Shown here: one piece after another, positions 9,910 to 40,632 of the stretch | How positions within the stretch are numbered: the stretch's first letter is position 1 | How the letters are laid out: the number at the start of each line of letters is the position of its first letter | NCBI GenBank assembly: GCA_049852185.1 | Contig: CP187540.1 | From: Methanocaldococcus sp. 28A | GTDB taxonomy: Archaea; AGJL01; Methanococci; Methanococcales; Methanocaldococcaceae | Length of the DNA: 64,000 nucleotides | Reading direction: 5' to 3' (one strand) | Program-made: the position numbers and the translations under genes | Notes under the pieces: generated by a model | Databases searched by the model: none | What the model saw: the letters and a program-made list of their open reading frames with translations, nothing else | Told to the model about the DNA's origin: nothing

Positions 9910-10716
9910 ATGATTCAAATAACGGTAATTCAGATAGATAATTACGGACCTTGGACAGTTACTCCAAATCCACGAAGAGAGAGTGATTTACAAGCTCTGC
10001 AGAGCAGATTATATGCTGATTTAAATCTCATGTTTGGAGCTCATAAGGGATTAGTGTTCTATACAAGATTTGATAATTTAATAGCTATAACAAATGGTAT
10101 TGATTTAATTACACACAAAAGAATTCAAGAGAGCATAAGAAACAGATATCCATTTACAGTTAGTATGGCTATTGCTTCAGCAGAAACACCTTATGAAGCT
10201 CAAAAACTTGCTACAAAAACACTACAGGAGCATGGAAGTGCTCAAGATGAAAATAGAAAAGAGGTTTTAGATGTAGCCAATGAGTTGGTTGTTGATGGTT
10301 ATGTCCAAATTGCCCACATTGATATAAACAACATTACGGGAACGTTTACAGATATTGTAAGTGCCTATGACACCTATATAAATGTAAATAAGGTTAAATT
10401 AGTATTGATGGAGGAGCTTTTAAAACATAACGCTTTGTTGTTTTTCATAGGAGGAGATAACTTCATGGCTCCATCAAATGGAATGAGTGAGGAAGATTTC
10501 TTAGATATTTTCAACAGAATCAATAAAAATTATAATATAGAGTTGAAAGCAGGAATTGGGATAGGGAGAACTGCAGAAGATGCCTCAAACTTGGCTGATG
10601 AGGGATTAGAGAAAATTAGAAAAAAGATAGTTAATAAAAATGTATGCACTTTAAAGCAAGATAATGTATTAGAGCAAAATATAACAACTGGAAGATTATG
10701 TGGATTACAAAGGTGA
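9910..10716 (+). CDS. gch3: GTP cyclohydrolase III (IIa)
   Basis: QIDNYGPWT...RRESDLQ, RFDN, GGDNF motifs. Confidence 0.92.
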
Positions 10717-11521: not shown

Positions 11522-12703
11522 TTAATTTTTGTTTTTATTGCCAAGTTTTTTAAACTCTTCTGCTAAATACTCAAAAACCTCTTTATCTTCCACATTCTCA
11601 AATATTTTTATTATATCGTAAATTATCCTTTTACACAAAGCTTTTGAAAAATCTTCTAAAACTTCCTCAATTGGCTTATTTTTATTCTTTAATATTTTTT
11701 TCGCTTTTTCTAATTCTTTCTTTCTAACATTCTCAATATACTGCCCAAGTTCTTTTATTGCTGTTTCAAATTTCATTTTATTAAGAAGCTCTTTTAATTG
11801 CTCCAATTCCTCACAAATAATCCTCTCAACCTTAGGAATCTCCTCTTTCCTTTTCTTTAAATTCTCTTCAGCAACCAACTTCAAATCATCGATAGTGAAT
11901 AAAAAAACATCTGGCAGTTCTCTAATATCGTCGGTTGTATCTCTTGGATTTGCTATATCTATAATAACTGTCTTTCCAGCGTCTTTTAATCTCTCCTTAT
12001 TTAAAATCGGATGTGGAGCACCTGTAGCTGAGATAACTATATCTGCATACCTCAAAGCTTCTTCTAATTTGTCAAACTTTATGGCAATTCCACCAAGTTC
12101 TTTAGCTAATTTTTCAGCTTTTTCATAAGTTCTATTTGCTACTATAATAGCTTTAATGTTTTTTTCCTTCAACGCTTTTATAACTAAATTTGCCATCTCT
12201 CCAGCTCCAATTAATAAGACATTTTTCCCTTCTAATCCAAAAATCTTCTCTGCTAATTCAACTGCCGCACTACCTATTGAAACTCCTCCTTCATTTATCT
12301 TTGTCTCTAATCTCGCTCTCTGTCCAGTATGTATTGCCTTTAAAATAATTTTTTCCAATTTCTTAGAAATTTTTCCTTTCTCTTTTGCTTTTAGATAGGC
12401 ATTTTTCAACTGCCCAAGTATTTGGTCTTCCCCAACAATCATTGACTCTAAACCACATGCTACTCTAAAAAGATGTTCAATAGCCTCATCTCCATATAGA
12501 ATATCAAATTTATCTAAATCTATGTAGTTGATGTTTTTAATCTCCTCTAAATTATTTGCATCAAATATAATCTCTACCCTATTGCATGTTTGTAATAATA
12601 CTGCATTATCAAACATCTCATAAAATTTTTCTTCATCCATTCTAAGCTTTTCTAATTCAGAGACATTGTATTTTTTATAATCAGCTTTTAATATTATTAT
12701 CAT
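11522..12703 (-). CDS. hemA: Glutamyl-tRNA reductase
   Basis: TCNRVE, GLESMIVGEDQILGQ, GAGEM motifs. Confidence 0.97.
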   Translation of the reverse strand: MIIILKADYKKYNVSELEKLRMDEEKFYEMFDNAVLLQTCNRVEIIFDANNLEEIKNINYIDLDKFDILYGDEAIEHLFRVACGLESMIVGEDQILGQLKNAYLKAKEKGKISKKLEKIILKAIHTGQRARLETKINEGGVSIGSAAVELAEKIFGLEGKNVLLIGAGEMANLVIKALKEKNIKAIIVANRTYEKAEKLAKELGGIAIKFDKLEEALRYADIVISATGAPHPILNKERLKDAGKTVIIDIANPRDTTDDIRELPDVFLFTIDDLKLVAEENLKKRKEEIPKVERIICEELEQLKELLNKMKFETAIKELGQYIENVRKKELEKAKKILKNKNKPIEEVLEDFSKALCKRIIYDIIKIFENVEDKEVFEYLAEEFKKLGNKNKN

Positions 12704-26402: not shown

Positions 26403-26648
26403 CTATGCAGGAATATATAGCTTATATAATGTATATGAAAATATAGCTAAAACCACTAACATAAAGATAATTTCAAGAGTTTCCATTTTATGAGCCATTT
26501 TTTTGTTTGTAATTGAAATAGTCAATATTAAGATTAATCCAAATATCAAAACTACTGAAATAACATTAAATTGCATTAATGTTACAAGTATTCCATAAAT
26601 CAATGCAATAATACAAGCAATTGCAAATAAATAGACATAATTTTTCAT
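26403..26648 (-). CDS. ehaK: Eha membrane subunit K
   Basis: Small 3-TM protein; operon position. Confidence 0.75.
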
Positions 26649-26678
26649 TTTTATCCCCCTGCTATTACTGTATAGAAC

Positions 26679-26753
26679 CCATAAAGAAGCGTCGCCCCTT
26701 TATTGAGATACTCTCCACCCTGGGGTATACCAATAGGGGCGAAGCCCCTATGG
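26679..26753. mobile_element. Family-3 GC-rich palindromic element (two inverted ends) flanked by duplicated ehaJ-ehaK junction
   Basis: CCATAAAG..GCCCCTTTATTGAGATAC / GGGGTATACCAATAGGGGCGAAGCCCCTATGG; 26-bp perfect direct repeat 26635-26660 = 26759-26784. Confidence 0.8.
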
Positions 26754-26774
26754 ATACAACATAATTTTTCATTT

Positions 26775-27653
26775 TTATCCCCCTATTAGTAATCTATATA
26801 ATACATCACACAATACGAGCCCTGCAATTGTCATTTGAAGCATAACTGAGTGGTGAGGTGCTAATAAAGGAGTTAATCCATTAACAAATGCCAAAATTAC
26901 TGTCATTATTATCATTGCTGTCAATGTCAATATAGGGCTGTTTATTACTGAAGGTCCAATAAATACAGCTATAAACAGCCAAAGCAATACAAAGTAAGCT
27001 ATTGCATCAGCAATATAAATTATAGAGCCCAACAAACCATAATGTTCTGTCATATATCCACTAACAATATCTTTACCCTTAACAATTCCAAATGGACTGT
27101 TAGGAGACTTTGAAACAAGCAATATAAAGAATGCAAATGCACAAATTGGCATTTTAAACAATAAACTTCCGTTTATTTCTTGAAATTTTAATATATCTGA
27201 AATTAAAACTGAGTGTGTAGTTAAATAGATAGCAGCAACAACAGCAAATAATGGAACTTCTGCAGCTGCTGAGAAGACACTTCTAACTCCACCAAGTTTT
27301 CCATAAGGAGAACCAGAAGACAAACCACAACCATGCTCAACAATCTTTTGCAATACATAGATTCCAATTATTATGAGTAAAGAGGACTTGAAATCAATAG
27401 CTATAATTAACGCTGCCAACCATATAGCTACATCCAATAAAGCAACAAATATATAGAGTGGATTTCCAGCAGTTATTGGGAAAGTTACTTCTTTTACATA
27501 GAATTTTAGAGTATGTAATAAATATTGGATGATTGGAGGGCCAGGTCTGCCTTGAATTCTTGCCATTATCTTTCTATGTAATCCAAGTAATAGAGAACCT
27601 ACAAGAAATGCGTGAATTGTTAAGTTTATTGTATTAATTATTGATGTATCCAT
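26775..27653 (-). CDS. ehaJ: Eha subunit J (NuoH-like)
   Basis: RKIMARIQGRPGPP and SGYMTEH motifs. Confidence 0.92.
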   Translation of the reverse strand: MDTSIINTINLTIHAFLVGSLLLGLHRKIMARIQGRPGPPIIQYLLHTLKFYVKEVTFPITAGNPLYIFVALLDVAIWLAALIIAIDFKSSLLIIIGIYVLQKIVEHGCGLSSGSPYGKLGGVRSVFSAAAEVPLFAVVAAIYLTTHSVLISDILKFQEINGSLLFKMPICAFAFFILLVSKSPNSPFGIVKGKDIVSGYMTEHYGLLGSIIYIADAIAYFVLLWLFIAVFIGPSVINSPILTLTAMIIMTVILAFVNGLTPLLAPHHSVMLQMTIAGLVLCDVLYRLLIGG

Positions 27654-27673
27654 AAAACCACCCAAATTTTTAT

Positions 27674-27874
27674 TTAGTATCCTCTAAATGGCAATTTTCC
27701 AATATCTTTTCTTCTTGTTTTTGGAATTACAAATGCTCCAATTCCATACAACAAAGTAGGAACTGCAATAACATACAATATATAGCATATCAACCCACTA
27801 AACAAGATAATTCCAATAACACACAACAAACCTACAATTAATGAATACAGTCCAAATTTTCTCTCTTCATCCAT
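27674..27874 (-). CDS. ehaI: Eha subunit I
   Basis: Two TM segments; GKLPFRGY C-terminus; operon position. Confidence 0.8.
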   Translation of the reverse strand: MDEERKFGLYSLIVGLLCVIGIILFSGLICYILYVIAVPTLLYGIGAFVIPKTRRKDIGKLPFRGY

Positions 27875-27883
27875 ATTTTCACC

Positions 27884-28540
27884 TTAAATTGTCAATAAAA
27901 TCTCAACGGTTCTAACAATCAATAATAGTGAGGAAAGGTGTATCATCAATATGTATGGTGAGCCAGGAGCTCTAAACATCTCCGCCTTAGCAGCATAGAA
28001 AGGAGCTATTCCAGTTTCTCCAGCCATTCCTGCTGCAAAAATAATTTTTTCAAATAATAAAGATGCAGAAGTTTTTGGTAATTCAAATAGTGATAATGTT
28101 CCAGTTTTAGCTAATATTAATCCAGCAGAGCCAAACAATGGAAGAGTTGATATCATTGCTATAAGCCCATATTGATAGCTTGCATTTAAAACCCATTCCT
28201 TTTTTACAGCAGAAACTATTCCAATATTTGCAATTCCAACTAATGTTAAGAATAAAGCATAATCAAACAAATCATAAGTAAGCATGGCTCCAGCAGTGGC
28301 TATTCCACAAACTATAGCCATCATTCTCCTAATTTTTAATTCTTTTAGTGTAACAACTTCTAATTTATCTTCAACTTTAAATTTTTGAGCTTCTAATTGC
28401 TTTTCAGGTTTTGTCAAATATACAATGATTGTGAATATCACTGCAGTAATAAATCCAATAATTGAAAACTCTGAAAACCCAAATACAATATCTCCAAAAG
28501 GGACTATCCCCATTAGAAATCCAGATATTGTTTCAATCAT
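27884..28540 (-). CDS. ehaH: Eha subunit H (antiporter-like)
   Basis: [20 protein letters not shown] motif. Confidence 0.88.
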
Positions 28541-29226
28541 TTTACTTCACCTATATACCCAATAAGCCCTAATTTTGAACCTACTTTTATAACCAAACCT
28601 AAACCTGCCATTAATAGAAATAAAAGCCACTTATCTGGAAATAGAAAGAACCCTAAAAATCCTATAACCCATAAAGCCCATGCGATTCCTGATAGCCCAG
28701 ATATTCCTTCCCACATAGTCATTAACTCTTTTGAAATATTTAGTCCAAGAACTCTTTGAGATAATGCATAAAACAACAATCCAGTAGCTATAACTGCTCC
28801 TCCTGTAAATCCGCTCAATATAGCACCATAAATAATTAAAACTATTGATAAAAACTTAGGTGAAGTTTTTAAAACCTCCATTTGAACATTATATTTTAAT
28901 TCTCCAGTATGTAGTGGAAGCTTAAATTCTTCAAACAATCTATAACTTCTTGACTTAGGTCTTTTTGATTTTAGATATTTTCTTGTTATTAAAACCTCTG
29001 AAACAGCCATAAGTTCAGCTAAACTAACAACTAATCCAGGGAGAATTAATGCCTCAGCTAAATCCGTATCAACTCCTGCTATAATTATGAGCATAGCACA
29101 TTCAATAATATCAGTCAATATTAAAGCATGTAAATCATCTTTTTGAAATCCAATAGCCAATAACGATAAAATTCCAATGGCAAACCCAACTAATATAGTT
29201 GAATGATAGAAATAAGTTATATCCAT
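28537..29226 (-). CDS. ehaG: Eha subunit G
   Basis: [13 protein letters not shown] and GFTGGAV motifs. Confidence 0.85.
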
Positions 29227-29235
29227 GTTTCTCAC

Positions 29236-29697
29236 CTAATCCTTGTTGAAGAACATCCAACTGAATATCATGAAAGAGATTAGCAAGATAGAGCTTTCAA
29301 GCACGGTATCCATACCTCTTGTGTAGTAGAGAATTTCGTCCAATATTCCCCCAGGTGTTGAAACTATCGTTGTACCAAAGTAGTAGGTTTTATCTTTAAT
29401 CCACTCAGCTATTGGTGTTAAATAAGCAGTAATTTTCCCAAGATTTGGAGAATATTGGGGATATTGAGCTTTTAATATTGCTGGCTCTTTTAGAGGAATT
29501 CCTCCTCTATCATAAGGAGCTAATGGTGTTTTTAATGTCTGAGAGTGAGGAATTGGTTTAGGATAGAGTTGATTAGGATTTAAATAATGAGGCATTAATA
29601 ATCCAAATATAAAGACCAAAGCTAAGAATACAGAGAATATTCTTGGAACAATCTCAGGTTTTGATAGGTAGTTCCATATTTTCCCCAATTGTTTCAT
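29236..29697 (-). CDS. ehaF: Eha subunit F
   Basis: PYDRGG and [17 protein letters not shown] motifs. Confidence 0.85.
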
Positions 29698-29709
29698 TCT
29701 TTCCCTCTA

Positions 29710-29970
29710 TTATTCATTTTCTTCAAATCCTGCATTTAATATCACAACTCTAACCAAAATCAAACTTAAAATTGCATTAACTGCAATAAATGTCATTAAT
29801 GCCAAAGTTTCGTCATATGCTAAGAATATTAAAGAGACCCCTATTGTTGGCACTTCAACATTCAGCATTCTAATAAATGGATTATCAACTTTTGGCCCAA
29901 TAACGGCCCCAAGAGTCCCAATAATCAGTAATGTATATCCAATATAGAGAAGATATTCTACAAGTTCCAT
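29710..29970 (-). CDS. ehaE: Eha subunit E
   Basis: RMLNVEVP; operon position; start after GGGGGAGG RBS. Confidence 0.8.
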   Translation of the reverse strand: MELVEYLLYIGYTLLIIGTLGAVIGPKVDNPFIRMLNVEVPTIGVSLIFLAYDETLALMTFIAVNAILSLILVRVVILNAGFEENE

Positions 29971-29993
29971 AAACCTCCCCCAAACATCTTTCA

Positions 29994-30272
29994 TTATTTA
30001 GGCAATATTGGAAGATTTCTCCCATATTTTTTCTTTTTCTTTATAGTTGTTACATATTTTAGATATCCAAGCAATAAGATTATAGTGCAAATTGGTTCAC
30101 AGATTGAAGAGATTATGGCTATATCCAAGTAATAACTTGATACAATTAAACCAAGCATCCCAATTTCCAATAACGCAAACATAATAATTTTGTTTATTGG
30201 ATTTGTATGCAAGATAACTCCAATTCCTCCTAATATACAACATATTCCTGATATTAATAGTAGAATCTCCAA
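29994..30272 (-). CDS. ehaD: Eha subunit D
   Basis: YLDIA..EP membrane protein; operon position. Confidence 0.8.
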   Translation of the reverse strand: MEILLLISGICCILGGIGVILHTNPINKIIMFALLEIGMLGLIVSSYYLDIAIISSICEPICTIILLLGYLKYVTTIKKKKKYGRNLPILPK

Positions 30273-30280
30273 AATTTCAC

Positions 30281-30526
30281 CTATTCAATATGTTTTGTCT
30301 GTTCTATTGTATAAGCGATTGCATTAGATGACAACGTCGAGCATATAAAGTAAATTATAGCTACAATTCCCCCCATTGGACTATTGACATATAAAGCAAT
30401 CAATGCAGAGATACAAAAGCTTAAACAGCAAAGATACAGCAATTTCCTTGCCCTACTTCTCTCTAAGAATATCCTTACTATCATTAACAATGCAATAAAT
30501 CCAATAATTATTTCAACTATATCCAT
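30281..30526 (-). CDS. ehaC: Eha subunit C
   Basis: RARKLLYL...STLSSNAIAYT. Confidence 0.8.
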   Translation of the reverse strand: MDIVEIIIGFIALLMIVRIFLERSRARKLLYLCCLSFCISALIALYVNSPMGGIVAIIYFICSTLSSNAIAYTIEQTKHIE

Positions 30527-31020
30527 CATTCCCCTCTATTCATCTTTTTAGCTATCTTTCCAAGCAATATTGAAGCCCATTTATGTTCAAATCCTTGTAT
30601 TGTGAATATTGCCAAAACCATTCCTGCGATGAAATACTTTGCCTCAATTATTGGATTTAAGATGTAGATGATGAAAGTTATTGTTAAAGCTCCAATGGTT
30701 CCAGCATAACCAGGGTCTGCACATAAACGATTGCCAATCCAAACTAATAAAGCCGCTATTAGCCCACCTTCAACTCCCATTAAATAGCTCATTATTGAAG
30801 CTAACAATGTCCCTGCTGAAGCGTCTGGAGAGCAAACAATATTTCCCATAAAATAGCCACCATGAATATTTCCACCAATGTCTCTAATTTTCTCCCCTAT
30901 TGTCTTAGCACCTAAAACACCTGGCTTTTCTGGCAATCCAAAATATGTATCAATGAGAACAAAGTTAAGCCAACATATAATTCCTGCTACAATAACTTTT
31001 ATAATCTCAAAAGCTTCCAT
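30526..31020 (-). CDS. ehaB: Eha subunit B
   Basis: [29 protein letters not shown] motifs. Confidence 0.85.
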
Positions 31021-31286
31021 TATGGCTCACCAAACAACTTATCTGCATATTTTGATAACAAAGCTCCAAATATGCCAGCAAGGATTGCTAAGCTTATATA
31101 ATCTCCAAATAGATTTCTAAATATTGCCTCAATGCCTAAAGCCAATATTGGTGTTGGAAACATAATAGATGTCTCAAAGCTAAACCTTATTGGCTTTTCT
31201 TTTGGAAGTAACGGAAGTTTTAAGATTAAAGCAACGATAATTGATGTTATTAAAGCTATTAAATATAAAATAATTATGTTTATCAC
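31020..31286 (-). CDS. ehaA: Eha subunit A
   Basis: [15 protein letters not shown] motif. Confidence 0.8.
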
Positions 31287-31290
31287 CTTC

Positions 31291-31929
31291 TCACCAACAA
31301 TGAATTATAATACAATCTTTATTTGTTGAATAAATTGGTGGAACCTCATCTTTTGGGAATACTTGAATAATAACTTTTTTACCTGTTTTTTTCATAAATT
31401 TTTTTTCTAATCTTCTAACATCTGAACAATCTAATAATATCTCAACATATTTATTATCAAGATGTTTTCCTATAACTCTTATCTTCCCTCTTGATAATTC
31501 TATACTTTCAATATTCATTACTTCCAATCTATTTTTCATCTCATTTAGCAGATTTTCTTTACTTATTATTAATACGGGATAACTTTCAATTGTTCTCAAG
31601 TATTTCCTATCACCTTTTTCAATAATCTCAGAAACAAAATCGGCGAAGGAGTCCTCAAATTTTAATAAAGATAGAGTATCTAAAAGTTCAATTATTGGGT
31701 CTTCAACATTGTTTAATGAGAAGCATTTTAATAAACCAAGAGTTATTGCAGTTGCTATGAGTTTAGTAGCCTGTCTTTTACCTTTCTCTAACATACTAAG
31801 ATGTGATTGGCTAATCCCACTTTCCTTAGCTAATTTTGATTGAGTAATTTTTAATTTTTCTCTAAACGCTTGAATGTATTGTGGATTTAGCAATATTGCT
31901 CTTTCAATAATTTCTAATTTTTTATACAT
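31291..31929 (-). CDS. XRE/Cro-type HTH regulator heading the eha operon
   Basis: [25 protein letters not shown]. Confidence 0.88.
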
Positions 31930-32116
31930 GCTCTCACGGAATAGTTAATTCAACAAGTATATGTAGGAAAGTATATTCCGATATTTTTCATAATCAATCA
32001 TTATATTATCGCTATGGAATAATTTTATCCCATGAGAAATATATAAAAGTTACCCAAAAAAAAGAAGACGAAAAGTTTAAATATTAGATTGATTAAAAGT
32101 TCCCTTAGGTGATAAA

Positions 32117-32698
32117 ATGGAAAATATACAAAGATTGGACTGTCCAGTATGTGGTGGAAAAGGAACTTTTGTAATAACTTCTCATCAAATAGACATTCCT
32201 TACTTTGGCCCTGTATTGGAAACAACAATGATTTGTGAGAAATGTAATTTTAGAAGAAGTGATGTATTCCCATTAGAGGTTAGAGAGCCAAAAAAGTATA
32301 TGTTAAAAATTAAAAGTGAAAGAGATTTAAATAAGAGAGTTGTTAGAAGTTCTTCTGCTTATATACAAATTCCTGAGCTTGGTGTAGAGATTAAACCTGG
32401 GCCATTAGCTGAAGGATTTGTTAGCAATGTTGAAGGAGTTTTAAATAGAGTTGATAATATATTACAAACTTTAATTAGATGGGCTGAGACAGAAGAGCAA
32501 AAAAAGAAAGCTGAAGAGCTTAGGGAAAGGATAAAAAAATTAAAAGAAGGTAAAGATGAGGCAACTTTAATATTGATAGACCCATTAGGGCATAGTGCTA
32601 TTATTGGAGATGGTGTTGAAGAAGAGATATTGAGCGAAGAAGAAGTTGAAAAATTAAAAGAAGGTATTGTAATCATGGACTTAGATAAGAAAAAATAG
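32117..32698 (+). CDS. ZPR1 zinc-finger family protein
   Basis: CPVCG...IPYFG...CEKC; SNVEGVL; DPLGHS. Confidence 0.93.
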   Translation: MENIQRLDCPVCGGKGTFVITSHQIDIPYFGPVLETTMICEKCNFRRSDVFPLEVREPKKYMLKIKSERDLNKRVVRSSSAYIQIPELGVEIKPGPLAEGFVSNVEGVLNRVDNILQTLIRWAETEEQKKKAEELRERIKKLKEGKDEATLILIDPLGHSAIIGDGVEEEILSEEEVEKLKEGIVIMDLDKKK

Positions 32699-32699
32699 C

Positions 32700-32755
32700 G
32701 GCTCAGTTCGGGTAAGTATCATCACAGTTCAGCTAACCCTCTTTTCATCATTGCC
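32700..32755 (-). ncRNA. C/D-box 2'-O-methylation guide sRNA
   Basis: GGC-A-AUGAUGA-(12 nt)-CUGA-ACU-GUGAUGA-(12 nt)-CUGA-GCC; guides complementary to conserved 23S rRNA sequences UAACCCUCUU and UCGGGUAAGU. Confidence 0.92.
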
Positions 32756-32854
32756 ATATTTACATATTGTTTTTTAAAGTTTTTAATAGTTTTCACAGTT
32801 TATATATTCATTATATTTTCATTATATTAAATATTTATTCTTGCAAAGTTATAT

Positions 32855-32965
32855 TATAGTTGTGTGCAAAAATAAACTTTATAATGGACAATTTAAATGC
32901 TTTCCTTTTGAAAAGATATTCATTAATATCATTATTAATTATAAATACTTTTATATACACTTATA
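32855..32965. mobile_element. Family-1 MITE (reversed, right half degenerate)
   Basis: Intact left TIR; decayed hairpin and right TIR. Confidence 0.7.
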
Positions 32966-33050
32966 ACATCTTTGTAAGTAAAAAGGTTTTTATTCTATTA
33001 CTCTAAATTATTATGTATAAAAGTATTAAGAAAGCAAAAATGGTGAAACC

Positions 33051-33488
33051 TTGTACAAAAAAATAGTCATTCCAACTGACGGCTCAGAAGTTTCATTAGA
33101 AGCTGCAAAGCATGCAGTTAATATAGCTAAAGAATTTGATGCTGAGGTTTACGCAATATATGTTGTTGATGTCTCTCCATTTGTTGGGCTACCTGCAGAA
33201 GGAAGCTGGGAATTGATAAGTGAATTACTAAAAGAGGAGGGGCATGAGGCTTTAAAAAAGGTTAAAAAATTAGCCGAAGAGTTTGGTGTAGAAGTTCATA
33301 CAGAAATGCTGGAGGGTGTTCCTGCAAAAGAAATCGTTGAATTTGCTGAAAAGAAAAAAGCAGATTTAATTGTTATTGGAACTACAGGAAAAACTGGATT
33401 GGAGAGAATATTACTTGGTAGTGTTGCTGAAAGAGTTATTAAAAATTCTCACTGTCCGGTTTTAGTTGTCAAAAAGCCAAAAAAATAA
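33051..33488 (+). CDS. Universal stress protein
   Basis: KKIVIPTDGS and LLGSVAERV...CPVLVV motifs. Confidence 0.95.
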   Translation: MYKKIVIPTDGSEVSLEAAKHAVNIAKEFDAEVYAIYVVDVSPFVGLPAEGSWELISELLKEEGHEALKKVKKLAEEFGVEVHTEMLEGVPAKEIVEFAEKKKADLIVIGTTGKTGLERILLGSVAERVIKNSHCPVLVVKKPKK

Positions 33489-33490
33489 AC

Positions 33491-34666
33491 TTATAATAAA
33501 TCTTTGAAGTATTTTAAAAGGATGGGTTTTTTAGTTATTATTATTTTAACAAATTTTTTTAAATCTATACCCTCTAAACTCTCTCCTAAAGCTTCTGCTA
33601 AAGCATCCAACTCCTCATCACTCATTTTCTCTAAGATTTTTCTATATTTTAAATGATTCATTAAATACTCATAATGCTTTTCTTTCCATCTTCTTTCATA
33701 TTCTTTTAATGTTTTTTCAGTCCAGTCATTTGCTTTTATTGCTTTACTTGCCACTTCTCCAGCAATTAATCCACAATCCATAGCCAAATAAATTCCTCCA
33801 CCAGTTAATGGGCTTATTTGCCCAGCAGCATCTCCAACAACTAAAAGACCATCAGTATAGGTTTTTTCTATAGGGCCAGAAACTGGAGCTCCTCCAACTT
33901 TAAATTCTATTGGTGTTGCATTTTTTAATCTATCTTTAGCTAAGCCATTTTCTATAAATTCTTCTAAATAATCAATTGCCTTCTTTTTCTTATCTCTAAC
34001 TCCTAAGCCAACATTTGCCGTATCTCCTTTAGGGAATATCCAAACATAACCTCCTGGAGCAACTTCATTCCCAAAATAGAATTCCATCATATTTTTATCC
34101 AACAATTCAACATTTGTCATTTCATATTCTACACAGGAACAAACTTCTAATGGTTTTTTCTTTGCTTTTAGTCCTGCATATTCAGCAATATTGCTTTCTA
34201 CACCATCGGCAGCTATAACCACTTTAGTTTTTATAACATACTCTTCCCCTAAGAACTCAACTATAACATTCCAATAATCCCCTTCCCTTTCTAAACCAAC
34301 AACCATTGATTTTACTGCCACTTTAGCTCCAGCTTTAGCTGCTCTTATCGCTAAATATTTATCAAAAATCTTTCTTTCAACTATATATCCTTGAGCTTTA
34401 TCTTGAGTTATTGTAATCTTTTTTCCAGATGGAGAGAAGAGAATTCCTCCTCTAATTGTATTTCTAACAAACTCTGGTTCTGGTTTTAATCCAAATTCCT
34501 CTATTGATGGAATTGCCTCAGCACACCTAACTGGTTCTCCAATCTCCTGAGATTTCTCAATTAATAGTGTTTTGGCTCCATTCTTTGCTGATGCATAACT
34601 TGCCATGCTTCCTCCTGGTCCAGCTCCAACAACCACTACATCATATACATCATTTAACTCTCTCAT
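33491..34666 (-). CDS. Geranylgeranyl reductase family (DGGGPL reductase)
   Basis: [35 protein letters not shown] motifs. Confidence 0.92.
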
Positions 34667-34836
34667 TATTCTCCCTCTAATGCATTTAATGGGCATACTA
34701 TTGTGCATAATTTACAATTATTACATTTTTTTTCATCAATAACTATAATATATTCCATTAAATTAATTGCTAAGTTTTCACAAACTCCAACACATGCTCC
34801 ACAATAACCACATTTTTTATGATTTATTTTTACCAT
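34666..34836 (-). CDS. Ferredoxin coupled to the reductase gene
   Basis: [11 protein letters not shown] and [12 protein letters not shown] motifs. Confidence 0.9.
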
Positions 34837-34991
34837 AATTTCCCTCAATTTCTGCTATTGGTTAAATTATAACTTATAAGAACTATAAAATATAGGTTGT
34901 TATTGTTTATTATCACATTGACTATAAAACCTTTATGTTACAAATTTAAGTAGTTTAAGTTGTTTTTAGTAAAAATTAAATTAAAATTAAC

Positions 34992-36017
34992 TTAGATTAG
35001 ATACTCTTTAATAATATTTTTAACATTTTCGACCATTGATTTGATTTTATTATTATAAATATCTACGCCATCTCCTACACTATCTAACACATTTTCAGCA
35101 TTAACATAACCTTCAAAAAATGCTGGTGGAGCATACTTTAAACCTATTCCATAACCTCCTTCCAAAACTGATACAACACCATATCTGCTTAGCTTAGCCC
35201 CTACAAACCTATAAAAAGTTTCAGTTAAGCCCATGCTTGCTAAACCATCATTCATAAAAGCATCAAAACCAGCTGAAACTAAAACAATACTTGGCTTAAA
35301 ATAATCCAATATTGGTTCAACAATTTCATTCCATGCAAATATATAATCAAAATCTGTTGAATGTGCTGAGAAAGGAAGATTTATTTTAGTTCCCTCTGCT
35401 TCTTTGCCACCAATATCAAACACATCTCCTGTTCCAGGATAGATACCATTTTGATGAAAGTCGATATGTATAACATTCTTATCATTCCAAAAAATTTCTT
35501 GAGTTCCATTTCCATGATGTACATCAAAATCAATTATTATAACTTTTTTCATATACTTTTTAGCCAATTCTGCTGCTCCTGCTATATTATTAAAGATGCA
35601 AAAACCATTTGACATTGCTCCTAAAGCCTTACCAGAGATACCTGCATGATGTCCAGGAGGCCTTGTTAGAGCAAAGTATAAATCTTTATATTCTATAGCT
35701 AATTTTATAGCTTCTTTTGCTAACTTAAAGGCAGATAATGAAGCGTATAAAGTTCCTTTAGAGATGTAAGTATCAGAGTCATAATAGTTAAATAAATCGT
35801 TACAAAGCTTTACTATTGAATCCACATACTCTTTACTATGAATTTCTAAAATTTCATCAATAGAAGATTTTCCTTCAATTAAAATGATATCTTCAAATCC
35901 TTTTAATTTTAAACTATTTAAAATAATCTCAACTCTCTTTGGATTTTCAACATGGTAAAATTTTGGTTTGTGGTTTAAAACCTCTGGATTGTATAAAATT
36001 TTTGGCATTATAGACAC
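34992..36017 (-). CDS. Histone deacetylase family protein
   Basis: RPPGHHA, GFCIFNN, DFDVHHGNGT, LEGGY motifs. Confidence 0.93.
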   Translation of the reverse strand: MSIMPKILYNPEVLNHKPKFYHVENPKRVEIILNSLKLKGFEDIILIEGKSSIDEILEIHSKEYVDSIVKLCNDLFNYYDSDTYISKGTLYASLSAFKLAKEAIKLAIEYKDLYFALTRPPGHHAGISGKALGAMSNGFCIFNNIAGAAELAKKYMKKVIIIDFDVHHGNGTQEIFWNDKNVIHIDFHQNGIYPGTGDVFDIGGKEAEGTKINLPFSAHSTDFDYIFAWNEIVEPILDYFKPSIVLVSAGFDAFMNDGLASMGLTETFYRFVGAKLSRYGVVSVLEGGYGIGLKYAPPAFFEGYVNAENVLDSVGDGVDIYNNKIKSMVENVKNIIKEYLI

Positions 36018-36056
36018 CTAAAATAGCTGATTTAATATATTTTACAAAAAAAGAAT

Positions 36057-36110
36057 TTATAATTTTCCAGCAAATTCATAACCTTTATTAAATGCTAATA
36101 AATTTTTCTC
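36057..36110 (-). repeat. Displaced, synonymously diverged copy of the korC 3' end
   Basis: 46/54 identical to 36445-36498; encodes EKNLLAFNKGYEFAGKL*. Confidence 0.9.
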
Positions 36111-36113
36111 CAT

Positions 36114-36440
36114 CCATAGGGCAGTTTCCTTAAATAGAACATACAAATCTATACTTTACACCATCCAAAAATTTTAAATAATACTTTTAACAATACTTTT
36201 AACGATATATTATAGCGTGGCAGTCCCGATATGTGGGGGAAACTAAGCCCGAATGGGACTGCTATTAAGATGAAGATGTGGGGAGTTTCCGTTCCCCCCG
36301 ATTGCCAGCCGATGAAGTTGGGAGGCTGGAAGGTTATCCGCTACGATTCGTTCGATATGTTCCATTTGTAGCGGAGAACCAGAACGGAAACCCTATTGGG
36401 ATACCCCGATGCATTGCCTCGCTTCGCTCGGCAATGCCTC
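36114..36440 (+). mobile_element. Family-3 element with about 270 bp cargo inside its terminal hairpin
   Basis: CCATAGGG(36114)...CCCTATTGGGATACCCCGATGCATTGCCTCGCTTCGCTCGGCAATGCCTC; same frame as the cargo-free copy at 38972. Confidence 0.75.
36219..36393 (+). ncRNA. HgcC-like structured RNA (candidate TnpB omegaRNA scaffold)
   Basis: GC-rich island; stems GGCAGTCCC/GGGACTGCT, GTTTCCGTTC/GAACGGAAAC, CCAGCC/GGCTGG, TCCGCTAC/GTAGCGGA; frame 36270-36371 reads KMWGVSVPPDCQPMKLGG, resembling archaeal TnpB C-termini as recalled. Confidence 0.65.
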
Positions 36441-36444
36441 TTTT

Positions 36445-36987
36445 TTATAATTTCTCTGCGAATTCGTAGCCTTTATTAAATGCTAATAAATTCTTTTCTT
36501 CAGTTCCCTTTGGAACGCTATCTAAAATTGCTTTTTCCATACTCTCTTTTGAGACAATATTTGTTAATTTAGTTAAAGCTCCTAACATAACTATATTTGC
36601 AACAATAGGCAATTTTATTTCTTCTGATGCAATTCTTGTAAATGGAATTTTATACATTGTTATATTAACATTAGGCATTTCTTCTGTAGAAACTAAATCC
36701 TCATCAACTAATATAATTCCTCCCTCTTTAATATCATCCTTATATTTATCATAAGCCTGCTGTGATAAACAAACCAAGATATCTGGCTTTATGACTTTTG
36801 GGAAATCTATTGGCTCATCACTAATAACAACCTCTGATTTACTTGCTCCTCCTCTTGCCTCAGGTCCATAAGATTGTGTTTGAACAGCCTCTTTTTTGTC
36901 ATATAAAGCTGCTGCTCTTCCCAAGATAACCCCAGCTAAAATAATCCCTTGCCCACCAAAACCAGATAATCTTATTTCTTTTCTCAT
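36445..36987 (-). CDS. korC: 2-oxoglutarate:ferredoxin oxidoreductase gamma subunit
   Basis: SGFGGQG, SYGPEARGG, NIVMLG motifs. Confidence 0.92.
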   Translation of the reverse strand: MRKEIRLSGFGGQGIILAGVILGRAAALYDKKEAVQTQSYGPEARGGASKSEVVISDEPIDFPKVIKPDILVCLSQQAYDKYKDDIKEGGIILVDEDLVSTEEMPNVNITMYKIPFTRIASEEIKLPIVANIVMLGALTKLTNIVSKESMEKAILDSVPKGTEEKNLLAFNKGYEFAEKL

Positions 36988-37053
36988 TTTAGCTCTCCTC
37001 TTTTAATTTTTGAAATTTTATAAATAATGGTAATGTTAAAAAATATTTATTTT

Positions 37054-37863
37054 TTATTCTTTCATTTTCTCAATTAACTTATGCAATTCATCAACAAACT
37101 CTGGTTTCTCTATATCTAAAAACTCTCCAACAACTATTTTTCCTTCTAATTCTTTATCAATTAAATTTTTTGCTTTATTTAAATGAATAGAGTTTTCTTT
37201 TAAGAATTTAATCATATCAGCTGGTTTTCTTGAGATGTTGAATCTTCCATAGTATGTTGGGCATTGAGAAACAACTTCAATAAACGCAAAGCCCTTCTTT
37301 TGAATACCTTTTTTAATTGATTTAACAAGCTGAATTGGATGAGCTGTTGTCCATCTTGCTACATAAGTAGCTCCTGCTGCTATTGCCAAATTAACTAAAT
37401 CCATAGTATTTTCTATACAACCATAAGGAGCTGTTGTAGCCTTTTTACCATAAGGTGTTGTTGGTGAAACCTGTCCTCCAGTCATTCCATAGATATTGTT
37501 GTTTATACAGATGACAGTTAAATCTATATTCCTTCTACATCCATGGATAAAGTGATTCCCTCCTATAGCCGCTAAATCTCCATCCCCAGTAAATACAACA
37601 ACATGTTTGTCTGGTCTTGCTATCTTAATTCCAGTTGCAAATGCTATCGGTCTTCCATGGGTTGTGTGTAAAGAATCACAATATAAATAACCTGGAATTC
37701 TTGAAGAACATCCAATTCCTGAAACTGCAATATAATCTTCTGGCTTTATGTTTAGCTCCTCAATTGCCTTTAAAAAGCAATTTATAACAATTCCATTTCC
37801 ACATCCAGAACAAAAAATGTGTGGCAACCTATCTTTCCTCATGTATTTTAATGCAGGATGCAA
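37054..37863 (-). CDS. korB: 2-oxoglutarate:ferredoxin oxidoreductase beta subunit
   Basis: CSGCG, SGIGCS, GDGD, YGMTGGQ motifs. Confidence 0.93.
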   Translation of the reverse strand: MHPALKYMRKDRLPHIFCSGCGNGIVINCFLKAIEELNIKPEDYIAVSGIGCSSRIPGYLYCDSLHTTHGRPIAFATGIKIARPDKHVVVFTGDGDLAAIGGNHFIHGCRRNIDLTVICINNNIYGMTGGQVSPTTPYGKKATTAPYGCIENTMDLVNLAIAAGATYVARWTTAHPIQLVKSIKKGIQKKGFAFIEVVSQCPTYYGRFNISRKPADMIKFLKENSIHLNKAKNLIDKELEGKIVVGEFLDIEKPEFVDELHKLIEKMKE

Positions 37864-37929
37864 ACTACCACCTCAAAAAATTTCTAATCAACTTCTAGTA
37901 AATCTTCCAAAGGATGTTGTAAAAGCCTC

Positions 37930-37977
37930 TTAGATTTTTCTCATAATAACTGCATGACTAAGCTCAAATATTACTCC
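37930..37977 (-). repeat. Displaced copy of the 3' end of ORF 38105-38884
   Basis: 27-bp perfect match 37939-37965 = 38111-38137; encodes GVIFELSHAVIMRKI*. Confidence 0.9.
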
Positions 37978-38110
37978 CAACCTTTTAGTAAAAGGTTGAT
38001 CAAAACGGATGCATTTACCTCTTTTAGAGGCAAATGCCTCTTATATTATAGTGGGGATGAAAGATGTGAAACCCGCTCGGGGTATAGCAATAGGGGCTTT
38101 GTCCCTATGC
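37978..38110. mobile_element. Family-3 composite palindromic element
   Basis: Hairpins AACCTTTT-AGT-AAAAGGTT and GCATTTACCTC..GAGGCAAATGC; end GGGGTATAGCAATAGGGGCTTTGTCCCTATGC supplies the host gene's Ala-TAG. Confidence 0.75.
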
Positions 38111-38884
38111 TCTCATAATAACTGCATGACTAAGCTCGAACATCGCTCCAGACAGCTCATTACCAATATCTTGAATATCAGATAAGCTTAGTTCAATCTC
38201 GTCTATTTGAACTGATATAGCTACTGGTAAATATTTATATGCTATTTCAAAGAGTTCAAAAGGTTTTGTAAGTAAATCAACGGCAATTAAGCCATTGAAA
38301 CTTTTATCTTCATTGAAATTTTGAGTTATAATCTTATTAATAATAATCTCATCTCTTTCTAAAGATGTTAGAAGATGTTTAATAACTTCTTCTTCATTTT
38401 TTCCAATTCCTTCAAACACAGCTTTAACTCTTATAAAACCTTCTTCTTCAAAATCAACTATTTCCTCTTCATCATATTTACCTTTTTTATATTTCTCTAT
38501 ATCAATATCTTTTTTCTTTTTAACATATACGTTAAATCCAATCTTATAAGTATCAACAAATGATTTAAATACACTTATAACTAAAGCTAAAACCTCGTTT
38601 ATTTCATTAGCCTTAAGTTTTAATTTTTTTGGTTTTATAACTTCAATATCAGCCCCATATTTTAAACAGAAGTTTATATAATCCTTGAAGTTATTAAAAT
38701 TTATCTCAAATTCTCCAATTTTTGTATAAAACTTTAAATTTCCATCTTCTTCTATATCTTCATCCACATATCTAAGTTTAGCATTATATTTTTCTTTCAA
38801 TTCATTAGCTAAGTTTTCAAATTCTTTTTCAACAATTTCTTTATAATTTCCTTTAACTTCTTCTAATGCATGTATTTTTATCAT
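38105..38884 (-). CDS. Conserved hypothetical protein (MJ0538-like)
   Basis: 259-aa ORF with GGTGG RBS and normal codon usage. Confidence 0.8.
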   Translation of the reverse strand: MIKIHALEEVKGNYKEIVEKEFENLANELKEKYNAKLRYVDEDIEEDGNLKFYTKIGEFEINFNNFKDYINFCLKYGADIEVIKPKKLKLKANEINEVLALVISVFKSFVDTYKIGFNVYVKKKKDIDIEKYKKGKYDEEEIVDFEEEGFIRVKAVFEGIGKNEEEVIKHLLTSLERDEIIINKIITQNFNEDKSFNGLIAVDLLTKPFELFEIAYKYLPVAISVQIDEIELSLSDIQDIGNELSGAMFELSHAVIMRA

Positions 38885-38947
38885 CTTACCACCAAAAAAG
38901 TAAAAATTATTAATAAAACTTAATTTATTATTATAATATTCTTATAA

Positions 38948-38971
38948 TTATAACAAAATCTTTCCCCAGAG
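38948..38971 (-). repeat. Displaced synonymous copy of a lysS near-3' segment
   Basis: 21/24 identical to 39063-39086; all 3 changes are third-position synonymous (LGKDFVI). Confidence 0.8.
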
Positions 38972-39034
38972 CCATAGGGCTCCGCTCTATTGGATACTCG
39001 GAGATGCACTACCTCGCTTCGCTCGGTAGTGCCT
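38972..39034 (+). mobile_element. Family-3 element (cargo-free)
   Basis: CCATAGGGCTCCGCTCTATTGGATACTCGGAGATGCACTACCTCGCTTCGCTCGGTAGTGCC. Confidence 0.8.
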
Positions 39035-39039
39035 TTTAA

Positions 39040-40632
39040 TTATTTAAATAATGAATATCTTCTTATAACAAAATCCTTTCCAAGAGTTGCTAAGAAAGCA
39101 CCTAACTTTGGACCGTATTTTTTACCCAATAATATCATATACGATGCTTGAAATGCATCTCTTGGATTTAAGCCAAGGTCCTTTGCAGTTTGATAAATCA
39201 ACTCATGCAAGTTTAATGCATCAAACTCAACTGTTTTTAATTTTTCAGCGAAGTATTTAATCCACTCTTTTTGTTTATCCTTCAATTTTTCATATATTTC
39301 TTTTGCTTCATTTTCATCAATTATAACTAACTTCTCTCCATATTTTAAAGCCCAGTTTCTTGCCATTAATAATCTGTCTTTCAATTTTTGCAAGCTGAAA
39401 TCATCAATATTATCTATGTTATAGTTGTTTCTTCTTAATATCTCAAATACTCTTTCCATATCTACATCGTTTTTTTCTTCATTATAAGTTAGCTGGGCAA
39501 TTATTGAGCAGAATCTATAATGAATAACAAAAGGCTTACTTTCAGGAATTTTTGGTGTAGATAATTCATAAATTCTTATTTTTTCCTTTTCTTCTTCACT
39601 TAATTCATCTTTATCTTTATTATTAAAGTAGAATTCCTCTAATCTATCATATTCATCCACTAAGTCAGGAATTTTCTTTAAATCAAAGTCTATATGCTTA
39701 GTTGGCTTACTTCTCAATAATAAAAATCTTAAAATTTCTGGATGAGCGATATGTGTCCAATCTTTTACAGCAAACACAACACCTTTTGAAGAACTCATTG
39801 GAATTGCTTTATCTCCAACTTTTAATTGAATCCACTCATAAACAACCTTTTTTGGAGGTATATAGCTATAGATTTCTTTTGCAATTAAAACTCCAGTATC
39901 ATAAGAGCCCCCAGCAGCTGCATGGTCTTTACCCATTGGCTCAATAGTTACATTAAATATACTCCACCTTGCAGGCCAATCTACTCTCCATGGAAGCTTA
40001 GCTCTCCCTTTATATGGTTTTACCTCTCCAGAGTATCCACATGCCTCACATCTATAAGTTACTTCCTCCTTCTCACTATCATATTTTACAACCTTTGTCT
40101 TTAACTTTCCACATTTTTCACAAACTATATTTATTGGCCACCAATCATCTGGTAATGGTGAAGCCCTAAATTTATTTAAAATTTCCATGATTTTTTCTCT
40201 ATTCTCTAAAGCAATCTTTATCTTTTCATCATAAAGTCCTTTTTTGTAGTTTTCATCAGCTCTATATGTTGTTAGCTCTACTCCTAAATCATCTAAACTC
40301 TCTAAATATGGGTTTAAAAAGTGTTCAGCATAGCTTTTACAACAACCTTCTGGACATGGAATCTCACTTAATGGCATTCCTATATACTGCTCAAACTCTT
40401 TTGGTAAAAATGGATAGAGCTTTCTTAATGGGTCGTAAGTGTCTGCTATAAAGATTAACTCTGCCTCAACACCTTTATTTATCAAACCTTTATAGATTGC
40501 ATCTGCTGTCAATGTTTCTCTTGCATTTCCTACGTGGATATGTCCTGAAGGAGTTATTCCACTCGCAACGATATATTTATCTGCCTTTCTCTCCTCAATC
40601 AGTTTTTCGGCAATTACATCAGCCCAATGCAT
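39040..40632 (-). CDS. lysS: Class I lysyl-tRNA synthetase
   Basis: [33 protein letters not shown] motifs. Confidence 0.97.

Follow-up and report, generated by a model that had tools for sequence, protein, structure and literature searches.

The question raised by this locus is why four short GC-rich elements each stand between two copies of the same gene end. In the window (the whole stretch of 64,000 nucleotides of Methanocaldococcus sp. 28A DNA that was analysed), an original prediction had placed four such elements at positions 26635-39086, each at or just past the stop of a minus-strand gene and each with a second copy of that gene's 3' end beyond it. We found all four elements and, at every one, a second copy of 24-55 bp (Table 1); we refer to the copy attached to the gene as the functional copy and to the other as the displaced copy. 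For comparison we used 17 genomes of the genus, among which G000 is the window's genome (two contigs) and G014 its closest relative.

Table 1. Elements and flanking gene-end copies in the window.
Feature	Position	Strand	Description
Element 1, displaced copy	26635..26677	-	diverged copy of last EhaJ-type codons plus RBS/start of downstream 81-aa gene
Element 1	26678..26758	+	two B-type hairpins, inverted orientation
Element 1, functional copy	26759..26801	-	3' end of NuoH-like/EhaJ-type gene 26775-27665
Element 2, displaced copy	36056..36110	-	korC-like 3' end including stop
Element 2	36114..36443	-	canonical A+B unit, hairpin-B loop interrupted by nested insert
Element 2, functional copy	36444..36498	-	3' end of korC-like gene 36445-36987
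Element 3, displaced copy	37939..37977	-	3' end of 259-aa ORF
Element 3	37978..38110	+	composite, three hairpin modules, B hairpin at end
Element 3, functional copy	38111..38149	-	end of 259-aa ORF beside element 3
Element 4, displaced copy	38948..38971	-	lysS end
Element 4	38972..39038	-	canonical A+B unit, sense orientation of lysS; E 5.5e-17 (nhmmer)
Element 4, functional lysS 3' end	39040..39086	-	repeat 39063-39086; native tail plus stop 39040-39062

Element 1 lies past the stop (26775-26777) of its NuoH-like/EhaJ-type gene and folds as DNA at -16.8 kcal/mol (z -4.1). It is absent from G014, G001, G002 and G007, and G005 carries a homologous composite at the same junctions. The repeat of 43 bp comprises 26 perfect positions followed by 17 with six mismatches: the 26 nucleotides of the displaced copy that are far from the element equal the other copy, and all six mismatches fall in the 17 nucleotides that adjoin the element. 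The functional copy differs at one site from the single copy in G014. Element 2 begins one base past the stop of the korC-like gene, which encodes 2-oxoacid:ferredoxin oxidoreductase gamma (NCBIfam match above cut-off). Its nested insert, at about 36130-36385, is a repeat of ~260-270 bp from another family, of which other copies were found, and G013 has the same element at korC without the insert. The element 2 repeat spans 55 bp with eight mismatches, and one state specific to the displaced copy also occurs in G013 and G005.

Element 3 (fold z -5.0) is flanked by a 39-bp repeat with four mismatches, at all four of which the functional copy has the G014 allele. The 259-aa ORF at this site has no NCBIfam match; its present stop, TAG (38105-38107), is supplied by the element terminus, and its native last two codons and stop stand at 37930-37938, after the displaced copy. 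Element 4, past the stop of an archaeal lysS, has a 24-bp repeat with three mismatches. The native lysS tail matches the genus consensus, and a scrambled former tail lies beyond the displaced copy at about 38925-38947. The site is empty in G014, G001, G005, G007, G012, G013 and G016, and G010 and G008 also have no element there; none of the sampled genomes holds an allele matching the displaced lysS copy. The displaced copy ends 0-3 nucleotides from a CCATAG-type terminus at three of the four elements, the same count as predicted, and at element 3 the terminus abuts the functional copy. The prediction that mismatches between copies are mostly synonymous held at korC (seven synonymous and one non-synonymous, with seven of eight at third positions) and at lysS (3/3 synonymous). 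It did not hold at ehaJ, where the codon pairs GTT/GTA, CTA/TTA and TAC/TAT were absent and an ungapped alignment gave no synonymous and six non-synonymous differences.

The four elements belong to a family of GC-rich hairpin repeats that is modular, non-coding and restricted to the genus. Its canonical unit, of ~66 nucleotides, consists of hairpin A, with a covarying stem, and hairpin B, of conserved sequence and ending in CCCTATGG; both loops fit the mini-hairpin motif GCGNAGC/GCGNNAGC. Across 34 units, pairing holds in 94.5% of cells and 10 pairs have changed on both sides, a result equalled by none of 500 shuffles. The unit has unlike ends and no terminal inverted repeat, and composites with a B hairpin at both ends make up 6 of 63. 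Inserts measure 50-333 bp and have no long ORFs. A search of the window's genome with nhmmer identified 23 element clusters. Eleven genomes of the genus have 15-48 occurrences each of the hairpin-B pattern, the remaining six have 0-5, and 23 genomes of other genera have 0-1 each (reversed control, 0-2 per strand); the octamer alone was not enriched (31 matches vs 22.6 expected). Among Rfam covariance models only sR3 reached its gathering score in the window, and at E up to 1 nothing relevant was found in 36000-39200.

Nor are the flanking duplications peculiar to the window. A direct repeat of the target, 19-59 bp long (median 31.5), flanks 62 of 107 hairpin clusters (58%) in five genomes, a repeat being called at the score reached by 1% of random positions; within the window's genome, where 300 random positions served as controls, 12 of the 23 clusters score at or above the 99th percentile. 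That frequency, the occurrence of the same structures at orthologous sites in independent assemblies and the two-contig state of the window's genome make assembly artefact or chance similarity hardly credible. The repeats, 63 loci in all, overlap a long ORF's end in 55 cases and a tRNA 3' end in 4; they also flank gene 5' ends (18 loci) and non-coding targets. With orthologous repeats removed there are at least 53 distinct targets, loci of related genomes being not fully independent. Relatives have single-copy empty sites for elements 1, 2 and 4 and for loci 650401, 778669 and 1494779. The last is a lineage-specific insertion, absent from G014, G012 and G002, with a perfect 43/43 repeat both copies of which carry two states missing in G014; it is a duplication made in place. 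Thus, insertion is accompanied by direct duplication of 19-59 bp of target that is single-copy at the empty sites of relatives, and surviving insertions sit at gene boundaries, so that the gene stays whole through one copy while the other is displaced.

The insert has one exact end and one ragged end. Of 55 hairpin-B termini, 30 abut the repeat with no gap; such a terminus lies within 5 nucleotides of the repeat at one end in 43 of the 63 loci and at both in 6. The other end of the insert is ragged, with filler between hairpin A and the repeat that does not derive from the native downstream sequence. In 36 of 45 gene-end configurations the B terminus adjoins the displaced copy. The exact terminus, its position and the ragged opposite end all favor the original prediction, according to which the element and a donor gene end form one mobile unit. 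That unit would enter by homologous recombination inside the gene and be joined illegitimately, at its terminus, a few tens of bp inside the recipient gene, so displacing the recipient's own end, with a Y1/HUH (RAYT-like) enzyme or an RNA-guided nuclease as driver. A synonymous bias symmetric between the copies (below) and TnpB genes in 11 of the 17 genomes count in its favor as well. Y1 transposase (PF01797), on the other hand, is found in only 3 of 17 genomes (one gene broken) and is absent from G001 and G005, which have 48 and 36 hairpins. One guide RNA cannot account for more than 60 different targets, and neither the non-native filler nor the repeats at 5' ends, tRNA ends and non-coding targets fit the model.

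The model further predicts that the displaced copy is the resident allele. Instead, a hand count over elements 1-4 and locus 650401 shows G014 siding with the functional copy at ~17 of the sites that distinguish the two copies and with the displaced copy at 6-7; at elements 1, 3 and 4 it is the displaced copy that deviates most from the single G014 copy. Judged by the closest relative, it is usually the displaced copy that looks foreign. The gene sequence that adjoins the functional copy on its inner side is 94-98% identical to G014, so that no long donor tract is present. Finally, private changes lean to the element-adjacent end in each copy (Mann-Whitney p=9e-5), not in the functional copy alone. 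With foreign states on both sides of the element, a foreign-looking displaced copy and a perfect 43-bp repeat, we regard arrival with a donor 3' end as unlikely. Three or four of 20 divergence hot spots between G000 and G014 fall in junction flanks.

Pooled over loci, the two copies differ at 171 sites, of which 107 (63%) are synonymous and 64 non-synonymous; the differences are distributed 39/25/107 over codon positions 1/2/3, not evenly. Many of the synonymous changes are first-position changes in Leu or Arg codons. Random change predicts a synonymous share of 27%. A purely vertical history, in which an identical duplication is followed by purifying selection on the gene-attached copy and neutral decay of the displaced one, predicts at most about 42%, far from that observed (p=8e-8; with orthologous repeats removed, 91 synonymous vs 51 non-synonymous, p=1.4e-7). 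Private changes of the displaced copy are synonymous in 38 of 62 cases (61% vs 27% expected, p=1.4e-8) and those of the functional copy in 25 of 39, and the functional copy holds 42% of polarised changes vs 21% expected (p=5e-7). To yield these values by vertical descent, the displaced copy would have to mutate ~six times more slowly than the gene's synonymous sites. Decay has certainly occurred in places, as in the ehaJ copy, the scrambled lysS tail, a 1-nucleotide insertion at locus 648744 and tRNA ends with T-loop changes, and repeats at six loci are perfect, but as the sole explanation vertical history is disfavoured and, we believe, very unlikely. The earlier argument was therefore borne out: the mismatches are not accounted for by an ordinary target duplication that decays neutrally. 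Since the synonymous bias is similar in both copies, both look like functional alleles of different lineages, and their descent from such alleles is supported.

A symmetric bias might also arise if the displaced copy were itself kept by selection, for example because it becomes the gene end upon loss of the element by crossover, or through translation coupling or regulation. The korC end of G014, which is chimera-like and uses the distal part of the displaced copy, is in keeping with this idea, as are the copies at element 1 and at G005 L107:5718, which carry the RBS and start of the next gene. However, a stop codon closes the functional copy, reading frames do not stay open across the elements into the displaced copy, and at locus 650401 the frame of the displaced 5' copy ends at the TAG within the terminus. 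Selection for future excision, moreover, cannot act in a lineage that retains the element, and the element-adjacent part would be lost on excision, yet differences in the first quarter of the displaced copy are 60% synonymous. Selective maintenance is thus quite unlikely.

Comparison among genomes points to exchange and loss. The korC insertion is common to G000, G013 and G005, and that at locus 648744 is present in nine genomes, whose displaced copies share the 1-nucleotide insertion; both appear to be old shared insertions. The single korC copy of G014 equals the functional copy upstream and the displaced copy downstream, and it looks like a chimera left by crossover between copies. At locus 648744 the copy-element-copy segment differs between G011 and G014 at about 7 of 150 positions (hand count), and their flanks are 85-91% identical to G000; transfer of the segment is possible. 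Copies within a genome sometimes seem homogenised (locus 776420, korC), implying a complex history.

The explanation that we favor, and to which we give a slightly better than even chance, is that the target was duplicated at insertion and that homologous recombination between lineages then gained, lost or exchanged the locus with short flanks. The insertions would be old polymorphisms moving among diverged lineages by homologous recombination or by break repair from an occupied allele, and loss would result from crossover between the two copies or from an empty allele taking the place of the occupied one. Short stretches of flank would travel with the element, and either copy could be overwritten by another lineage's functional allele; as a result the copies would differ as alleles do, mostly synonymously, and foreign states would adjoin the element on both sides. 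As for the primary insertion, an exact 3' end, a ragged 5' end and duplications of varying length are suggestive of copying-in at staggered breaks rather than of a classical transposase. The pattern as a whole suggests an unusual insertion mode coupled with frequent interspecies recombination.

Several observations weigh against the favored explanation. Loss of the element from the reference genome through crossover between copies would likewise produce private changes on both sides, a pattern that fortuitous lengthening of the repeat ends could reinforce. The B terminus beside the displaced copy in 36 of 45 cases is not what a symmetric duplication would lead one to expect; orientation-dependent selection, the only available appeal, may be responsible. 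In addition, non-synonymous changes make up 37% of the differences, decay is plain in some of the displaced copies, and no recombination tract was traced to a donor among the sampled genomes. A bolder reading, which we consider rather unlikely, is that of a new archaeal mobile element without a transposase of its own. A single-stranded intermediate, ending exactly at a very stable 3' hairpin, would be copied into breaks staggered by 19-59 nucleotides at gene boundaries (target-primed or replication-linked). The occupied allele would home between species with short co-conversion tracts, and displaced gene ends would be fossils of foreign alleles, spliceable back into the gene on excision.

A repeat family that has probably been known for twenty years appears to insert with unusually long target duplications, variable in length, and with one exact end, in a manner that fits no standard prokaryotic transposition mechanism and with which no matching enzyme co-occurs. 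The displaced gene ends are short non-functional sequences that keep the synonymous signature of other lineages' alleles, and they make recombination among Methanocaldococcus species at vents directly accessible to study. Proteins are affected as well: elements provide stop codons and novel C-terminal tails (element 3, loci 648744 and 776420), crossover loss between copies can leave chimeric gene ends, as apparently at korC in G014, and extra start or end copies can mislead gene callers.

How does the family compare with known systems? Judged by description, not sequence, it is probably that of the published MJRE repeats. MJRE1-3 are reportedly short palindromic GC-rich repeats, mostly extragenic and in some cases read as coding. 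They come from the same genus and are, like the hairpin family, multicopy, palindromic and mostly extragenic, with some coding instances; here, three gene tails are partly element-encoded. PMC2229807 and PMC2996958 cite MJRE1-3 of Methanocaldococcus jannaschii (Suyama, Lathe & Bork 2005, FEBS Lett). As far as our searches reach, the literature holds no description in print of the long variable duplications and allele-like divergence.

REP/BIME elements, mobilised by RAYT (Y1/HUH), and IS200/IS605-derived palindrome elements are accompanied by a Y1 gene and do not duplicate their target on insertion. They resemble our family as GC-rich imperfect palindromes that cluster after gene 3' ends in mosaic arrays of both orientations; the 19-59 bp repeats at 58% of clusters, and a Y1 gene in just 3 of 17 genomes, set the present family apart. 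In MITEs, of which Correia, RUP and the Sulfolobus SM elements are classical prokaryotic examples, the target duplication is short and of fixed length. They too are small, non-coding and multicopy, with target duplication and presence/absence polymorphism, whereas here the duplication varies threefold in length and the insert is ragged at one end. A review (PMC10969869) ascribes to MITEs terminal inverted repeats that match an IS; the canonical hairpin unit has unlike ends, although composites may bear a B hairpin at both. Integrase-type islands, which use one fixed target and restore the 3' end of that tRNA or protein gene, likewise leave a partial displaced copy of the target 3' end beyond the insert, and tRNA 3' ends are among the targets of our family too; our elements have no integrase and no cargo, and occupy dozens of unrelated targets including 5' ends. 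Non-LTR retroposons and SINEs, which insert by target-primed synthesis, may offer a likeness of mechanism alone, in the variable-length duplication, exact 3' end and ragged 5' end with filler; here there is no A-tail, and reverse transcriptase (PF00078) gave no match in G000 (99.9% complete), the one genome searched. Finally, intron and intein homing also spreads to the same site in other lineages with short donor tracts beside the element. Our elements encode no endonuclease and their occupied allele carries a duplication; passive recombination would suffice for their spread.

All four hairpin elements that had been predicted in the window were found in place, each at the 3' end of a minus-strand gene, and beyond every one of them lies a second copy of that gene end, the repeats being 24-55 bp long (see the table). 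We refer to the repeat attached to the gene as the functional copy and to that beyond the element as the displaced copy. The original prediction also held that the mismatches between the copies are mostly synonymous. This was borne out for the korC-like gene (seven synonymous, one non-synonymous) and for lysS (three of three synonymous), but not for the ehaJ-type gene, whose six differences are all non-synonymous and in which the codon pairs cited as evidence are absent. The ORF at element 3 takes its stop codon from the element's own terminus. Elsewhere in the same genome (G000), a ferredoxin-like gene enters hairpin A of an element by about seven to nine codons, and the A end of another element provides a stop. 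Octamer enrichment within the window was not significant.

Elements and other features located in the window, in its genome (G000, contig C1) and in related genomes
Feature	Position	Strand	Host gene or description	Flanking repeat
Element 1	window 26678-26758	host gene minus	NuoH-like membrane subunit, consistent with EhaJ (profile matches below cut-off)	43 bp (26 perfect + 17); 6 mismatches, all within the 17
Element 2	window 36114-36443	host gene minus	2-oxoacid:ferredoxin oxidoreductase gamma subunit, korC-like (match above cut-off)	55 bp; 8 mismatches
Element 3	window 37978-38110	host gene minus	Unnamed 259-aa ORF	39 bp; 4 mismatches
Element 4	window 38972-39038	host gene minus	Archaeal lysS	24 bp; 3 mismatches
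Stop of 259-aa ORF	window 38105-38110		TAG in terminus of element 3
Nested repeat in element 2	window 36130-36385		About 260-270 bp, in loop of hairpin B
Further copies of nested repeat	near G000:C1:1425500, 216172, 1360567, 162223
C/D box sRNA sR3	window 32701-32755	minus	Rfam RF01133, 52 bits, over its gathering score
Ferredoxin-like gene end	G000:C1:648743-648773		Coding sequence running into hairpin A
Stop of another gene	G000:C1:776482-776488		TAA at A end of element
IS200/IS605-type unit	G000:C1:829441-831249		The only such unit in G000; Y1 transposase next to two adjacent TnpB matches
korC 3' end in G014	L031 ~10067-10131		Single copy
Insertion in G014 lacking hairpin B	L031:1540-1760 (window ~27646-27669)		Two other hairpin modules	~46 bp, gene start
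CRISPR-array-like stretch in G005	L033 ~11800-12200		~30 nt repeated unit with unique spacers, between korC's neighbour and element

The canonical unit of the family is about 66 nt long and consists of two hairpins, A and B, with a short spacer (alignment A1). Hairpin A exhibits strong covariation; the sequence of hairpin B is conserved, with CCCTATGG as its terminus. Over 34 units, 94.5% of the cells were paired and 10 pairs had changed on both sides, whereas none of 500 shuffles did as well and slid controls were 18-48% paired. Folding as single-stranded DNA gave z-scores of -3 to -5. Because G-U pairs are scarce and units are present in both orientations, the hairpin structure may matter as DNA. 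The loops of both hairpins mostly conform to GCGNAGC or GCGNNAGC, a mini-hairpin DNA motif that the abstract of a 2026 review (PMC13037366) terms extraordinarily stable. This match is a hint that, at the temperatures of growth, the structure may act in the form of single-stranded DNA. Composites in which units are linked to other hairpin modules also occur. Matches to the hairpin-B pattern number 15-48 in each of 11 genomes of the genus and 0-5 in each of the remaining six, as compared to 0-1 per genome in 23 genomes from four other genera of the order and 0-2 per strand in a reversed control. An Rfam scan of the elements matched no family. The family is very likely the MJRE repeats of Suyama et al. 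(2005).

The hairpin B of element 2 holds a repeat of a different family, with an AT-rich head and a GC-rich body. Several other genomes of the genus contain copies of this repeat as well, but in G013, where the same element is present, the nested insert is missing. No copy of this repeat is adjacent to a TnpB gene, and it had no match in the Rfam scan.

Flanking duplications are a property of the family rather than of the window, contrary to the possibility that most copies lack them. In G000, 12 of 23 clusters are flanked by a direct repeat scoring no lower than the 99th percentile of 300 random-position controls. We then applied the same score to every hairpin-B site in G005 (22 of 22 regions), G001 (25 of 25) and the closest relative, G014 (8 of 8), as well as to 5 of 19 regions of G007; with G000 included, 62 of 107 clusters passed. 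Adding four G000 pairs missed by the pattern gave 66 pairs, with repeats of 19-59 bp (median 31.5) and inserts of 50-333 bp, and removing three passing repeats that were element-internal modules left 63 loci. At 55 of these the repeat overlaps an ORF end, for ORFs of 100 codons or more (3' ends at 44 loci and 5' starts at 18, with some loci in both groups), and at four of the other eight it is a tRNA 3' end that is duplicated. In these four cases (L101, L110, L113 and L145, from G005 and G001), the elements directly follow tRNA-Leu, tRNA-Ile, tRNA-Gly and tRNA-Ala genes, and the duplication spans the T-arm to CCA plus a few extra bases; one tRNA copy has T-loop changes in L101 and L145, and L110 and L113 have mismatches too. 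Empty sites with a single repeat copy were found in relatives for elements 1, 2 and 4 and for three other G000 loci (650401, 778669 and 1494779). Meanwhile, G000 is empty where G014 carries an insertion that lacks hairpin B but is flanked by a repeat some 46 bp long, and long duplications are thus not bound to hairpin B. Since the structures recur in independent assemblies, they are not artefacts. Literature searches of main texts other than Suyama et al. (2005), among them searches on the MJRE names, on Methanocaldococcus MITEs and on repeats with target duplication, found nothing on long duplications or allele-like divergence of these repeats.

An example of a fresh insertion is locus 1494779, at which the repeat in G000 is perfect (43 of 43) and G014, G012 and G002 are empty. 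Insertion can therefore make an identical duplication. Both copies have two states in common that are absent from G014, which is 94-97% identical to G000. In G001 and G007 that gene end is occupied too, by another composite that lies 10 nt off and whose repeat has diverged, and so one gene end has been struck twice. Other insertions are old. The korC site is occupied in G000, G013 and G005, whose displaced copies share a state found in no functional allele, and at locus 648744 nine genomes have an element, with a 1-nt insertion common to their displaced copies. Module content at the same junction varies among genomes.

To compare the copies at the codon level, we restricted scoring to the parts of the repeats for which the gene-attached copy is coding sequence, taking ORFs that extend at least 100 codons and, where two conflicted, the longest (62 configurations, 549 codons). 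The copies differ at 171 sites, unevenly spread over codon positions 1, 2 and 3 (39, 25 and 107), and 107 differences are synonymous and 64 non-synonymous, with many first-position synonymous Leu or Arg changes among them. This synonymous share, 63%, compares with 27% for random change with the observed transition bias and at most 42% for a selected copy paired with a neutrally decaying one (p=8e-8). With one representative for each of 53 orthologous clusters, the counts were 91 synonymous versus 51 (p=1.4e-7), and synonymous differences were in the majority at 27 loci, non-synonymous at nine, with five ties. The G000 ortholog allowed changes to be polarised at 37 of 51 non-G000 loci (gene configuration, BLAST hit and at least 80% coverage). 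Private changes were synonymous in 38 of 62 cases in the displaced copy (p=1.4e-8 versus 27%) and in 25 of 39 in the functional copy, and the functional copy held 42% of polarised changes versus 21% expected. Because the synonymous bias is alike in each, both copies behave as functional alleles of different lineages, as had been proposed, and not as a gene and its neutrally decaying relic. Neither gene conversion between the copies alone nor faster mutation in the gene can yield the bias of the displaced copy, and we rejected both. The results demonstrate that target duplication accompanies insertion that insertions survive at gene boundaries and persist for long, and that the two copies diverge in the manner of alleles.

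Which copy is the foreign one? The original prediction was that the element imports a donor's 3' end, making the functional copy foreign, along with a stretch of donor sequence further into the gene, and the displaced copy resident. We consider this unlikely. Rather than presenting the resident allele, the displaced copy is mostly the deviant one: judged against single copies in G014, its departures lie beside the element at locus 650401 as well as in elements 1, 3 and 4 (at korC both copies depart there), and a hand count of sites at which the copies differ has G014 siding with the functional copy about 17 times and with the displaced copy six or seven times. Instead of a donor tract, gene sequence inward of the functional copy shows 94-98% identity to G014. 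Moreover, the filler next to hairpin A is not native downstream sequence. The private changes of each copy lean to its own element-adjacent end (Mann-Whitney p=9e-5), a skew that is also expected if the reference lost its element and to which chance extension of repeat ends may add. Junction flanks, although they account for <2% of the alignment between G000 and G014, contain three or four of the 20 hot spots of local divergence. The entire G011 segment at locus 648744 is far nearer to G000 and G014 than its flanks are. Finally, the single korC 3' end of G014 corresponds upstream to the functional copy of G000 and downstream to the displaced copy, and looks like a chimera of the kind expected from crossing over between the two copies.

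We propose that diverged lineages would swap occupied and empty alleles by homologous recombination or break repair, with short flanks carried along with the element. Either copy could thereby be overwritten by another lineage's functional allele, and a crossover between the two copies would remove the element. Such recombination would account for the synonymous bias of both copies, two-sided patches, perfect fresh repeats and mosaic empty sites; a literature search on recombination within Methanocaldococcus populations gave nothing usable. A caveat is that related genomes do not supply independent samples. What recombination leaves unexplained is the position of the B terminus, which in 36 of 45 configurations adjoins the displaced copy. 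Elements are in sense orientation in the 3' cases and antisense in the 5' cases, and a possible source of the placement is orientation-dependent tolerance, for example through a putative terminator-like effect. As for the inserts themselves, the hairpin-B end is exact and the opposite end ragged.

No candidate enzyme fits the elements well. The suggested co-occurrence with Y1 (HUH) transposases did not hold up: a Y1 gene is found in 3 of 17 genomes, one of them broken, and is missing from the two most element-rich complete genomes, and we rejected it as the mobiliser. TnpB occurs in 11 of 17 genomes. It is lacking in four distant species with few elements and also in two element-rich incomplete genomes, and occurs in two element-poor ones, a pattern that tracks phylogeny and is thus confounded. 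G000 has eight TnpB matches in all, those outside the IS200/IS605-type unit being scattered. Cas1-type integration was considered for its long duplications, and there are two Cas1 genes, but the spread of 19-59 bp argues against it, as an integrase with a ruler should produce duplications of a single length. A diversity-generating retroelement, considered for the repeated gene 3' end, was rejected as well: no reverse transcriptase domain was found in G000, the repeats are short and their differences show no adenine specificity.

As repeats, the elements are very likely already known. They resemble MITEs in target duplication and presence/absence polymorphism but differ in the variable length of the duplication and in a canonical unit without terminal inverted repeats. 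They look like REP/BIME arrays but have no co-occurring Y1 gene. In having a precise 3' end, a ragged 5' end and a duplication of variable length, they recall target-primed insertion, here without a reverse transcriptase domain in G000. And although they have neither an integrase nor a fixed target, they share with integrase islands the displacement of gene ends.
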